50,839 nucleotides of DNA from an uncultured Chloroflexia bacterium (lineage in GTDB: Bacteria; Chloroflexota; Limnocylindria; Limnocylindrales; CSP1-4): NCBI GenBank assembly GCA_963734535.1, contig CAVTHS010000013.1, forward strand, positions 1-50,839, in the 5' to 3' direction. Of the stretch, positions 43,173 through 50,730 are shown in pieces. Made by a program: the position numbers and the translations under genes. Position 1 is the first letter of the stretch. Each line of letters starts with the position of its first letter. The notes under the pieces are model-generated. The model was not told where the DNA came from, made no database searches, and saw only the letters and a program-made list of their open reading frames with translations.

Positions 43173-43952
43173 CTACCCCGTGATCGCCGTTACCAGGTTG
43201 ACGATGTGCGGCGAAGGGCCAAGCCCAAGCTCGTCGCGCATGAGCTGGCGGTAGGCCTCGTATTGCCGAAGGGCCTCCCCGCGGTTGCCTTCCGCCAGGT
43301 GCACCTCGATCAGCTGCCGATGGGCGCTCTCCCGCAGGGGCTCGCCGGACACGGCGGCGAGACACATCTCGATTGCCCGCCCGAATCGACCGGCGGTGGC
43401 GAGGAGGCCGCAGAGCCTCTCGAGGGCGTGCAGGCGCAGTTGGCGAAAGCGCTCGCGTTCCACGAGCAGCCAGTCATCGGACCAGTCGGCGAGCAGGTCA
43501 TTCGCGACGGCGAGTGCCTCGACATCCGTTTCCCGGTCATCCGCAAAGGACACAGCGGGCTCGTCCGGCCGATCGATGAGGTGGAGAGCGAGGCTGCCCA
43601 GAACGCGCACGTCAACCGCAACGCCTGGAGCCAGCGCCAGCTCATTCCCGTTGGTGACCACGAGCGTCCCTGGAAGCTTGCGTACGCGCCACAGCGTCGA
43701 GCGAAGGTTCCCCATCGCCCGAGCGTCAACGGCGTCGGGCCAGAGCGTCCCGGCGACGTGCGACCGCAGAATCGGGGGCTCGCGAAGCGCGAGATACGCG
43801 AGCAGGCGCTGCGCACCCCACGCCGGCCGGATCACCCGCTCACCGTGGTGCAGGGAGAAAGCGCCGATCAGGCCGATCGTGTAATGAGGAACGGCGCCGT
43901 TGATGCCCGGTTCCGAGGTACGGGGGGACGCGTCACTCAGGCCGTGATGCAT
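43173..43952 (-). CDS. Small SARP/BTAD transcriptional activator
   Basis: [20 protein letters not shown]...[44 protein letters not shown] -10 upstream. Confidence 0.9.
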
Positions 43953-44048
43953 GACCGCTCGCCGTGTCCCTCCCGGGCGATGTGGGGCGCAATTGTAGCC
44001 CGGGATCACTCGACGTCCACCTGCGCGATCAGAGTGCTTCGGCCGACT

Positions 44049-44091
44049 GGTGACGAAGCGGTGACGGGGTGGTGATGAGCGTTCTGATAGT
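44049..44091 (+). promoter_or_regulatory. SARP-type heptamer repeats upstream of the large operon
   Basis: GGTGACG (44049), GGTGACG (44060), GGTGATG (44071), 11-bp period; GATAGT follows after 8 nt. Confidence 0.6.
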
Positions 44092-44157
44092 CATGTCGCC
44101 CAACCGGTGCCAAAGAGGGAGACGCGCCGGCCGGCGACGGCACGAGGGGGGCGAACG

Positions 44158-48884: not shown

Positions 48885-49340
48885 ATGGCACAGCAGCGTC
48901 CGCCCGAGAAGCCGACCGGGAACCGTTCGTTGCGGCTGACCTTCAAGTACGAGGGCGATGCCGTTACGCTCGTCGAGCAGGAATCTGTGGCCATGCTCGC
49001 CCCTCCTGACGATGCCGCCCTCCTGGAGCGTGGCCAGAGCGGTTTCCACGTGGAGCTCCAGGACGCGGACGGGAAGCCGCTGTACCGGCGCGTCCTCCAC
49101 GCGCCGATCCGGGACTCGTACGAGGTGTTCTCGCCTGAGCCGGGGGCAGCCATCTCGCATGTGCCAATGGATCGGCCGCATGGTTTCTTCAAGGTTGTCG
49201 TACCGGATGTGGCGGGAGGACACTCGGTCGTCGTCGTCGGTCCTCCATCGGCGATCGACCGGGCCGCCGCGGTCCCGGGCCCGATCATCCGGGTGAAGCT
49301 CCACGGGGAAAAGCCCCCCCGCAAGGCGGAGCAACAATGA
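48885..49340 (+). CDS. Hypothetical protein translationally coupled to the M64 peptidase
   Basis: ATGA overlap with the peptidase start; beta-rich pattern (SLRLTFKYEG, FHVEL.D..G..LY, FKVVVP). Confidence 0.75.
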   Translation: MAQQRPPEKPTGNRSLRLTFKYEGDAVTLVEQESVAMLAPPDDAALLERGQSGFHVELQDADGKPLYRRVLHAPIRDSYEVFSPEPGAAISHVPMDRPHGFFKVVVPDVAGGHSVVVVGPPSAIDRAAAVPGPIIRVKLHGEKPPRKAEQQ

Positions 49341-50464
49341 GCGCGGCGGATGGGGTGGTGGTCGGGACCACCAAGCTCGTCGACCACGGCCCTGACTCGG
49401 CGCGCTGGACGCTCGTGCTCCTGGCCGAGGGGTATCAACAGGCGGAGCTGGCCAAGTTCCATACGGATGCCGACGCGTTTGTGACCCGCCTGTTCAGCAC
49501 GCCGCCGTACACGGAGCTCTGGTGCGCCCTGAACATCTACCGGGTGGACATCGCCTCGAGCGGGAGCGGTGCCGACGACCCGGCGGCGTGTGCGGACGGA
49601 GCAACCGGCACGGGCACAATGGTCAGCACCTTCTTCGACTCGACGTTCTGCGTCGCCGGGACGAGGCGCCTCCTGGCCGGCGATGAGCACCTCGCGGACA
49701 CGACGGCGAAAGCGGCAGTGCCCGAGGTGGACGCGACGGTGGTGATCGTGAACGCGGCCGAGTACGGCGGGGCCGGGGGGTTGGTCGCGTGGACGTCGAC
49801 CAATGCCGCCGCCGGCGAGATTGCGGTGCACGAGCTCGGCCACTCGGCCTTCGCGCTCGGTGACGAGTATGGCGACACTCTCAACACCTATGCGGGCGCG
49901 GAGCCGAACCAGCCGAACCTCACGATCGACACGGGCCGGGCGACCACGCGCTGGGCCGGTCTGATCCGGGCAACGACGGCGCTGCCGACCATGGACAACC
50001 CTGACTGCACGACCGAGGACACCAGGCCCAGCCCGGTTCCCGCCGGGACAATCGGGCTCTTCGCGGGCGGCAATCGCTATCACTGCGGCCTCTACCACGC
50101 CGAGTACCGGTGTCGGATGCGCGCACTCGGCAACCCGTTCTGCGCCGTTTGCGCCGGAACCATCAAGGCGACCCTGCGGACGCACCTCCCGATGGCCAGC
50201 GGTCCGGTCCGGGGTGTCCAGTTCACGGGGACCCTTGCGCCGCGCCAGACGCACCAATGGTTCACCCATGATTGGCCGGCGTGCTGGCACGTCATCTGGA
50301 CCGTGACCACCACCACGCCGATCACCCCAGGGCCGGGCATCGACTGGCACGTGCGGGTGGAGCGCGCCAACCGCGAGATGATCACCTACTGGATCGAGGT
50401 CACGAACCTCACCTCGACATCGCTTGACGTCGAGGCGCGATACGCCATCGCGGCCAGGGAGTAG
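49337..50464 (+). CDS. M64 (IgA peptidase-like) zinc metallopeptidase with C-terminal Trp-rich beta module
   Basis: LVLLAEGY, PY...NIYRV..SG, IVN..EYGGAGG, HELGHSAFALGDEY, EP..PNLT, GLFAG..GLY..CRMR...FC.VC. Confidence 0.88.
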   Translation: MSAADGVVVGTTKLVDHGPDSARWTLVLLAEGYQQAELAKFHTDADAFVTRLFSTPPYTELWCALNIYRVDIASSGSGADDPAACADGATGTGTMVSTFFDSTFCVAGTRRLLAGDEHLADTTAKAAVPEVDATVVIVNAAEYGGAGGLVAWTSTNAAAGEIAVHELGHSAFALGDEYGDTLNTYAGAEPNQPNLTIDTGRATTRWAGLIRATTALPTMDNPDCTTEDTRPSPVPAGTIGLFAGGNRYHCGLYHAEYRCRMRALGNPFCAVCAGTIKATLRTHLPMASGPVRGVQFTGTLAPRQTHQWFTHDWPACWHVIWTVTTTTPITPGPGIDWHVRVERANREMITYWIEVTNLTSTSLDVEARYAIAARE

Positions 50465-50475
50465 GAGGGACCCGC

Positions 50476-50730
50476 ATGTTCGTCGGCACCCAGTTCACCG
50501 GGCCGGTCGCCGGGGGGGCGTCCCACACCTGGTTCACGCACGACTGGTCGCCCGACTGGCATGTCATCTGGACAGTCGTTCCCCTCACCCCGGTTGCAGG
50601 CGCCCCACAGCTCGATTGGAGCGTGGCCGTGCAGCGGGCGGGCGCCAGCGCGATCACCTACTGGATCACGATCCACAACCTGACCTCCGCGGCGATCGAC
50701 GTCGAGGCCCGCTACGAGGTTCTCGACTAG
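50476..50730 (+). CDS. 84-aa stand-alone paralog of the peptidase C-terminal module
   Basis: GGAGG SD; ungapped match to the peptidase tail (GxQFTG..WFTHDW...WHVIWTV..ITYWI..NLTS..DVEARY). Confidence 0.88.
   Translation: MFVGTQFTGPVAGGASHTWFTHDWSPDWHVIWTVVPLTPVAGAPQLDWSVAVQRAGASAITYWITIHNLTSAAIDVEARYEVLD

Follow-up and report, generated by a model that had tools for sequence, protein, structure and literature searches.

The end of the contig analysed here raises the question of what a giant protein without a recognizable family is doing in one operon with a zinc peptidase, next to a regulator of the antibiotic-cluster type. The window (the whole 50,839-nt stretch of DNA, contig CAVTHS010000013.1 of assembly GCA_963734535.1, from an uncultured Chloroflexia bacterium) ends in five plus-strand genes, encoding the giant protein, a 323-aa partner, a 151-aa protein, a peptidase of the M64 family and an 84-aa protein; the gene of a small SARP (Streptomyces antibiotic regulatory protein) lies divergent from them. 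The SARP and the M64 peptidase belong to known families, and the giant and its partner have no significant match among the family libraries and solved structures searched, beyond two generic beta sandwiches in the giant. A first-pass annotation had read the five genes as a co-regulated multi-protein machine; they do form one tight, recurrent unit, but not an indivisible machine of five families. We propose, with a probability of about 40%, a composite operon that joins two autonomous gene pairs under a dedicated activator and encodes a SARP-switched, membrane-directed cytoplasmic effector processed by a docked protease.

The giant protein (44158–47910, plus strand; 1250 aa as the window reads) has no significant family in Pfam, NCBIfam, PADLOC or PHROGs, the sole row being CarboxypepD_reg with an E value of 0.01 and 16.6 bits against a cut-off of 32.3 bits. 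Its start is probably GTG 44158, within an open reading frame (ORF) of 44107–47910, because this position agrees with P0007, a metagenomic protein of 95% identity. A word-indexed search returned 689 sequence relatives; all 120 of those listed lacked a precomputed Pfam domain, and the named ones among them were hypothetical proteins or, twice, YgcG-like. With a profile of the giant, 3,101 clusters were found among 1.84 billion representatives at E ≤ 1e-3, and 1,500 at E ≤ 1e-30, and relatives were confirmed by tblastn (E ≤ 1e-3) at 489 places in one-genome-per-species contigs. The genome-locus counts given below rest on the best 80 of these 489 places, among which the named records include Actinomycetota, Pseudomonadota, Acidobacteriota, Gemmatimonadota, Verrucomicrobiota, Nitrospirota, Planctomycetota, Bacillota, Chloroflexota, Bacteroidota and Bdellovibrionota. 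Identity is 62–69% within the clade that carries all five genes (including one Sphingomonas) and 38–48% across phyla, over about 1,000 residues, and the conserved core is C-terminal, at profile positions ~315–1150. No description of the giant/partner family was found in the literature, supplementary files lying outside the search. The earlier statement that the operon could be assigned to no named system is borne out by the family and structure libraries, which yielded no such system.

The partner gene (47907–48878, plus strand) is the constant companion of the giant. It was found directly downstream in 69 of the 80 loci (tblastn), and the 11 loci without it have at most 1,003 nt left after the giant match, ten of them at most 266 nt. 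Its identity across loci is 37–67%, and the polar residues R39, R50, N56, N65, R125, D127, R174, D190 and E291 are invariant among 41 sequences. The partner has nothing significant in the same four family libraries, no Foldseek match in the Protein Data Bank (PDB) at E ≤ 1e-3 and no usable match in the ESM Atlas. Of the peptidases of the LAS/Hedgehog type (VanX, VanY, LdcB, MepA), which have an alpha/beta sandwich fold and bind zinc through His/Asp/His ligands, it lacks the zinc site, since no His is invariant or near-invariant in the 41 sequences. No fusion of giant and partner was found: when the partner, the 151-aa protein, M64, the module protein and the SARP were compared by blastp with the 266 other proteins of the set, an M64 (P0271) was the sole match, and the single longer protein matching the partner (610 aa, 98% identity over 37% of the query) is probably a gene-call artefact. 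A complex prediction for giant residues 560–1134 with the partner scored 0.00, had no controls and speaks neither for nor against an interaction. Clustering of the flanking ORFs revealed no other constant neighbour of the pair beyond small sub-clades: in loci without protease genes, the 120 downstream ORFs fell into 96 Pfam families, none with more than three members, and the 124 upstream ORFs into 158 families.

The giant and its partner are thereby shown to be an autonomous genomic unit, and one that is horizontally mobile. The giant is single-copy in its host genome and was found in none of 60 host relatives (36 of the same genus and 24 of the same order, many of these genomes being incomplete). 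Its FastTree phylogeny (77 of 81 giants, four rows of less than 900 aa having been left out) departs from that of the organisms: Sphingomonas tabacisoli is nested in an actinobacterial clade, and near-identical giants carry Burkholderiales and Gemmatimonadota labels, the latter with the caveat that applies to binned genomes. Giant relatives occur in 30 of 72,556 plasmid records and in none of 50,697 phage records. On the conjugative plasmid Lpl of Novosphingobium sp. PP1Y the pair lies beside an IS21 element: a neprosin-family peptidase, a 1161-aa giant and a 408-aa hypothetical protein are encoded in a row (L084, 5612–11629) between the IS21 element and the parAB/repA genes.

The second pair consists of the M64 zincin (49337–50464, plus strand; 375 aa) and the 151-aa beta-rich protein encoded in front of it (48885–49340, plus strand), whose gene end the M64 start overlaps through ATGA. 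The assignment to M64, already made in the first-pass annotation, is confirmed by a PF09471 match of 127.7 bits (cut-off 26) and by the invariance of H165-E166-x-x-H169, D176, E177, C250, C259, C269 and C272 in 17 sequences. The site corresponds to HEXXHXXXGXXD plus a second zinc site of Glu and three Cys, as set out for ThomasA (PMC12402451). With these active-site residues intact the enzyme looks active, the Gly of the zinc motif being Ala here. ThomasA, the IgA protease of Thomasclavelia ramosa, and BF3526 of Bacteroides (PDB 4df9) share with it the Pfam M64 catalytic domain and the order of HExxH...D, then Glu, together with the Cys cluster of the second zinc site. In contrast to ThomasA, which is secreted and wall-anchored, the M64 here has no signal peptide and is predicted to be cytoplasmic. 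It aligns only to residues 158–401 of 4df9 and therefore lacks the N-terminal domain of ~150 residues; unlike both characterised enzymes, it always has a separate 151-aa beta protein in front, and it carries a lineage-specific C-terminal beta domain (50213–50449) that is also duplicated as a free gene. This free copy is the 84-aa protein (50476–50730, plus strand), 56% identical to M64 residues ~293–371 (E 1.9e-27). Neither the 151-aa nor the 84-aa protein has anything significant in Pfam, NCBIfam, PADLOC or PHROGs, and a search for the module in longer proteins gave one match, itself an M64. The possibility that the 151-aa protein is the split-off N-terminal domain of M64 was also tried and found no sequence support: 11 of 17 members of its family have weak RodZ_C matches (best E 0.0018), and it has no PDB match.

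How closely the second pair is bound to the first can be read from a metagenome search that started from the M64 and returned 139 relatives; 80 of the loci were retained, 19 with the C-terminal module and 61 without it. The 151-aa gene stands upstream of M64 in 13 of 13 loci of the module class and in 58 of 59 of the module-less class (at least 450 nt available). The giant stands upstream in 8/8 loci with the module (at least 3 kb available) and in 1/12 loci lacking it (at least 5 kb available); the partner, counted in the module class, does so in 11/11 (at least 1.5 kb available). A free module gene follows M64 in 16/16 loci of the module class (at least 280 nt available), and none was found in the module-less class. 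The only giant-positive module-less locus, L112, has a giant of 39% identity and an M64 of 720 aa with another C-terminal extension, which includes a TIG-like domain. Across 21 long loci the 151-aa/M64 pair showed no other conserved neighbour. These two proteins thus form an independent pair, and the beta module, fused and free, marks the association with the giant; because the two coincide, we read the module as a docking element.

The genome loci give the same picture from the side of the giant. The 151-aa, M64 and 84-aa genes accompany it in 16 of the 80 loci, all within one 18-row clade of 98% support; where rows of this clade do not show the protease genes (L003, L005, L015), the contig breaks off too soon, and in the sister rows, from Actinotalea and Cellulomonas, these genes are missing. 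Order and spacing of all five genes are kept in these 16 loci and, among the metagenomes, in 8 loci of full length, from Actinomycetota and the one Sphingomonas. The tightly packed, co-oriented operon described at first is thus real and recurs as a block. The first-pass annotation had made its machine depend on co-occurrence of the giant and partner with the peptidase and module genes; these do occur together, but both pairs are also autonomous, which counts in part against it.

This autonomy invites the explanation that the two modules are mere neighbours, the 151-aa, M64 and 84-aa proteins having a substrate of their own and the shared operon reflecting co-transfer; that the 151-aa/M64 pair keeps no other conserved neighbour in the long loci agrees with it as well. 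We nevertheless consider it unlikely, since order and spacing persist across these genome and metagenome loci, the module domain, like its free copy, is confined to the M64 lineage that accompanies the giant, the distant giant clade of L112 has also recruited a 151-aa/M64 pair, and unrelated proteases are found at equivalent positions in other clades. A different relation between the two pairs would be one of restraint, M64 degrading or trimming the giant and partner in the manner of an antitoxin and the free 84-aa module competing for the docking site, thereby releasing the complex. A competitor or decoy would be a simple reason to keep a free paralogue of the docking domain, which is co-encoded in every case. 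Trimming would also be in keeping with BF3526, which is reported to trim the N-termini of already cut proteins and not to make a specific endoproteolytic cut (PMC12402451). The protease domains fused to long giant relatives fit autoprocessing better than degradation, and a restraining role appears very unlikely to us.

The giant is associated with proteases well beyond M64. In a four-locus clade (L068, L069, L071, L078), as on the Novosphingobium plasmid, the gene immediately before the giant, on its strand, encodes a neprosin-family protein with an activation peptide, and the neprosin-family proteins beside giants have, by inspection, no signal peptide. Furthermore, in 25 longer relatives of 1,400–2,450 aa (P0172–P0242) the giant core is C-terminal and is combined with DUF4332 (19/25), Peptidase_C70 (5/25), a caspase domain (C14, 1/25) or Peptidase_C13 (1/25), and also with Big_2, Ig and LRR domains; the ESM Atlas, which for the giant returned unnamed clusters, had given weak leads to DUF4332 and Peptidase_C70 that these domains confirm. 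The DUF4332 of the 19 long relatives sits N-terminal to the core, and is presumably a helix-hairpin-helix-like domain. The strongest argument that proteolysis is part of the biology of the giant is that five unrelated protease families adjoin it or are fused to it.

The AlphaFold2 (AF2) model of the giant, built from 63 sequences, is good at residues ~560–880, and its predicted local distance difference test (pLDDT) score falls below 50 over residues 433–500, a Gly/Ser-rich, predicted disordered loop (45454–45657) between long beta hairpins formed by strands 359–372, 391–408, 523–540 and 559–575. An exhaustive structure aligner recognized two sandwiches in the model, one transthyretin/CarboxypepD_reg-like (residues ~106–208; 44473–44781) and one PLAT/LH2-like (residues ~648–830; 46099–46647); the latter is predicted to have eight strands in PLAT topology and two helical insertions. 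It is followed by a His/Glu/Cys/Trp-rich C-terminal region with the most conserved stretch of the protein, in which His, Glu and Cys are invariant and the IDLTRFWNWQDSP motif occurs. The PLAT/LH2 fold is used by lipases, lipoxygenases and clostridial alpha-toxin to reach membranes. The giant resembles such enzymes (clostridial alpha-toxin, lipoxygenases, pancreatic lipases) in having a sandwich of the same topology beside a larger conserved region; unlike them, it has no PLAT match in Pfam at E ≤ 0.1, carries the two helical insertions and has no detected phospholipase C, lipase or lipoxygenase catalytic domain. Foldseek found nothing for the giant at E ≤ 1e-3 in the PDB or, by the tool's count, among viral structures (best E 1.0e-3, template-modelling score 0.07), and profiles of the giant, the partner and the 151-aa protein had no credible match among PDB sequences. 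The structure searches thus place the giant and partner in no already described system at E ≤ 1e-3, but do recover the two generic sandwiches in the giant. A pore-forming role for the central loop was considered and rejected, as the loop is Gly/Ser-rich and not consistently hydrophobic, with no transmembrane-like window outside a predicted beta strand. As a separate observation, a Streptomyces clavuligerus megaplasmid (L085, 5101–10943) carries, at 2.3 kb from a distant giant relative (~31% identity across a third of the query), a distinct small gene whose annotation reads PLAT/LH2 domain-containing protein, which is of note given the PLAT-like fold of the giant.

The giant ends in a tail of Gly/Ser/Thr repeats, encoded by GGC/TCC/ACG-rich tandem arrays (47485–47811, plus strand; Tandem Repeats Finder), in which, near 47578, the reading shifts to a frame rich in Arg, Leu and His. 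Three-frame translation shows that the +1 frame after 47578 reads GSGGTG... and ends in the C-terminal peptide of P0007, and this homologue-supported frame stops at TGA 47864–47866, 40 nt before the partner ATG. One short contig in each of the public runs X2, X3 and X5 (related strains) has one base less at 47578; these contigs come from relatives, share a small fraction of words and leave parts of the repeat uncovered. Either a misassembly of the repeat or a strain-specific frameshift confined to a disordered tail would account for the extra base at ~47578.

The fused domains and the PLAT-like fold bring up a further alternative, an exported or contact-delivered toxin of the polymorphic type, which the protease would release and for which the partner would act as chaperone or confer immunity. 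Large secreted toxins typically have accessory domains of the C70, caspase-like and legumain-like kinds, and also Big_2, Ig and LRR domains, and all of them occur in the long relatives; the PLAT-like fold is common to a membrane-damaging toxin domain, and the long Gly/Ser/Thr tail could be a linker. Polymorphic toxin systems combine an N-terminal secretion or trafficking domain with a variable C-terminal toxin and a variable immunity gene. Here, by contrast, the C-terminal core is conserved, the partner is nearly as conserved as the giant, unlike immunity proteins, and no signal peptide, lipobox or adjoining secretion gene was found, the M64 and neprosin proteins being likewise without signal peptides. 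The proteins were scanned with simple hydropathy and motif rules instead of a trained signal-peptide predictor, and no N-terminal hydrophobic segment or lipobox was detected, in agreement with the earlier impression that no obvious Sec/Tat signal or lipobox is present; the single RR-motif match, at partner residue 38, lies in a helical N-terminus with no hydrophobic stretch behind it. Membership of the polymorphic toxins was rejected on these grounds, and the exported toxin seems to us distinctly improbable.

The switch of the operon appears to be the small SARP-type activator encoded at 43173–43952 on the minus strand (259 aa from the probable ATG 43952, the ORF being open to GTG 44009). Its BTAD domain is clear (PF03704, residues 172–276, 77.8 bits against a cut-off of 22.1, E 1.4e-21). 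The AfsR model aligns SARP residues 28–274 to its positions 14–263 (E 1.2e-7, far below the equivalog cut-off), an alignment that spans the N-terminal OmpR-type winged-helix region, where Trans_reg_C of Pfam is unmatched at E ≤ 0.1. The ATG lies downstream of a sigma-70-like promoter, TGGACG-16-TACAAT (44019–43992, minus strand), the only promoter-like site called by a promoter scan in 43900–50839 (0.2 expected). Between the divergent genes stand three direct heptamers on the plus strand (44049–44077), GGTGACG at 44049, GGTGACG at 44060 and GGTGATG at 44071, with an exact 11-bp period. A -10-like hexamer, GATAGT (44086–44091, plus strand; read by eye and not called by the promoter scan), begins 8 bp after the third heptamer, which is the distance given by the SARP site rule. 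The triple scores 19/21, a value that none of 300 shuffles of the 300-nt upstream region attained, and other periods score at most 14; a two-repeat pattern has two matches in the window, both at this site, with 0.19 expected and with two of 100 shuffles reaching two. Taken singly, GGTGAYG heptamers are frequent (39 across the window against 23 expected), and therefore only the periodic array is informative.

Comparison with relatives strengthens the case for an operator. In 11 of the 16 genome loci with all five genes, a SARP relative of 35–51% identity lies alongside; six of these stand upstream and divergent and five downstream, four of the latter on the opposite strand and one on the same strand. 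The SARP-bearing loci have 11-bp-periodic triples with a shared (G/A)ACG core (GGGGAAC, GGAACGC, GCAACGC) upstream of the giant gene, and the repeats remain there even when the SARP gene is downstream. No periodic triples were found upstream of the giant in the five SARP-less five-gene loci and two sister loci, and the best period-11 triple score is 15–19 in 10 of 12 SARP-bearing loci against 10–12 in 7 of 7 SARP-less loci. The proposal that the SARP acts on the heptamers, made from this window at first, has thus gained comparative support. The classical SARP site consists of three heptamers in 11-bp units overlapping the -35 element (PMC10972967). The array here has the same direct repeats and 11-bp units where the -35 of its target promoter would be, and is a putative SARP operator. 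As at actinomycete gene-cluster promoters of the ActII-ORF4, DnrI and AfsR type, a small BTAD activator, cluster-situated and divergent from its target, is combined with three 11-bp-unit heptamers at the -35 position before a -10-like hexamer. In contrast to them, the target consists of large uncharacterised proteins and a protease with no recognisable biosynthetic cluster, the heptamer core is GGTGAYG (GGAACG/GCAACGC in relatives) and differs from the sites of known SARPs, and the DNA-binding N-terminus of the SARP has no Pfam match. Two individual loci may be mentioned here. L007 has, at 3390–3440, a tandem array of three CCCACGACTACG-like units of 12 bp before its giant gene, which scores 21/21 at period 12; L018, a SARP-less five-gene relative, has a canonical-looking TTGACA...TAATCA, read by eye, and no repeats upstream of its giant (9770–9810).

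Combined with the above analysis, the composite operon could work as follows. The small SARP would bind the three heptamers at the -35 position and recruit RNA polymerase to the giant promoter, so that all five genes are turned on. Being without export signals, the giant and its partner are both likely to be active in the cytoplasm, and the PLAT-like sandwich together with the conserved His/Glu/Cys/Trp-rich C-terminal region makes a membrane- or lipid-directed output most likely. The 151-aa/M64 pair joined this core in one clade, in exact step with the gain of the M64 beta domain and its free 84-aa copy. The beta domain may serve as an adaptor that docks M64 onto the giant/partner complex, and M64 would then cut the giant and gate its activity, for which the exposed Gly/Ser loop or the tails would be obvious targets. 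Defence, competition and programmed lysis are all possible biological roles.

Several results weigh against this reading. The earlier idea that proteolysis acts on this system is strengthened by the unrelated proteases that replace M64 in other clades, but in 53 of the 69 loci with a visible partner there is no adjacent M64, 151-aa or module gene, and few of these have a neprosin gene, so that an external protease is not generally required. Among the 12 module-less loci in which 5 kb or more is available upstream, 11 have the 151-aa/M64 pair but no giant, and this pair may therefore have a different native substrate. As a whole, the AF2 model of the giant is of middling quality (mean pLDDT 63.7), and a hydropathy scan found no transmembrane-like hydrophobic stretch in the giant. 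On the regulatory side, L007 and L011 score below 15 at period 11, the former having its array at period 12 and the latter two copies, and the loci compared for repeat scores are kin and not independent trials.

Among explanations that share the protease-gated effector, we weighed anti-phage abortive infection, in which a protease triggered by infection, either M64 or neprosin or, in fused form, a C70 or caspase-like domain, would cleave the giant and cause membrane damage by a gasdermin-like logic. On the one hand, the patchy distribution and horizontal movement of the pair, its plasmid-borne copies, its absence from the phage records, the interchangeable protease classes and the apparently cytoplasmic nature of all components would suit such a system, and the LRR, Ig and DUF4332 N-terminal extensions of the long relatives could be sensors. 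On the other hand, none of the six proteins matched a PADLOC-DB 2.0 family at E ≤ 0.1, and membership of a known anti-phage system was rejected on that basis; the flanking genes are not enriched in defence or mobile-element families, the conservation of the giant within its clade and across phyla is unusual for a defence gene, most pairs have no adjacent protease, and a SARP activator implies programmed expression and not infection sensing. Bacterial gasdermin–protease pairs likewise combine a large effector near proteases of interchangeable classes with horizontal mobility. PADLOC models include gasdermins, and the giant pair has no PADLOC sequence match; no gasdermin fold is among the structure matches listed for the giant, which moreover exceeds gasdermins about fourfold in size, depends on an obligatory partner of 323 aa and in most copies lacks an adjacent protease. 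We regard abortive infection as somewhat unlikely. Returning to the SARP-switched composite operon, a more far-reaching form of it, which is doubtful in our estimate, would make the giant and partner a new and widespread class of protease-gated cytoplasmic effector, directed to the membrane by the PLAT-like domain and switched on by cleavage with a cognate protease, the candidates being M64, neprosin and, as fused domains, C70, caspase or legumain; it would be a non-gasdermin death or defence device that actinomycetes have brought under developmental SARP control.

The source bin, actinobacterial in type, comprises 3.2 Mb in 14 contigs at ~70% G+C, with a completeness of 89.9% and a contamination of 7.1%. 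All genes, the three heptamers and a terminal hairpin were found where the first-pass annotation had placed them, and the operon occupies the end of the contig, which stops 109 nt past the 84-aa gene. The GC-rich hairpin (GGCAGCCCC...GGGGCTGCC; 50757–50784, plus strand) has a 9-bp perfect stem and no T tract, is not called by a terminator scan that looks for T tracts, and is followed by 55 nt. The last 108 nt (50731–50839) have a very stable predicted RNA fold of -55.5 kcal/mol, larger than a simple hairpin, a value that has no shuffle control. On the 5' side lie ordinary chromosomal genes, namely purK, a large AfsR-like SARP, the gene of isocitrate dehydrogenase (icd) and purE, and no tRNA was found in the window. 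The large AfsR-type regulator (37041–40286, minus strand; Trans_reg_C, BTAD, AAA_16 and TPR_12) is situated between purK and the isocitrate dehydrogenase gene, 3 kb upstream of the small SARP, and the contig thus has two SARP-family genes. The purK and purE genes (32881–34374 and 42613–43254), usually neighbours, are ~8 kb apart here, being separated by icd, the AfsR-like gene and two ORFs that have no Pfam match.

For the family as a whole, the analysis brings together more than 3,000 representative clusters and 489 genomic places in at least ten phyla, with 38–69% identity over 1,000 residues, under a protein that so far lacks name, fold and function and whose partner never changes. The recurrence of five unrelated protease families with the giant provides a concrete handle on its control, and the coincidence of the M64 beta domain with the giant names a candidate docking element. 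The SARP and its heptamers would extend a family of antibiotic-cluster regulators to a non-biosynthetic target and offer a natural on-switch. If the giant and partner are indeed a membrane-directed death or defence effector, they would form a new type among such effectors; if otherwise, they would still be among the larger unexplained conserved gene pairs of soil bacteria.

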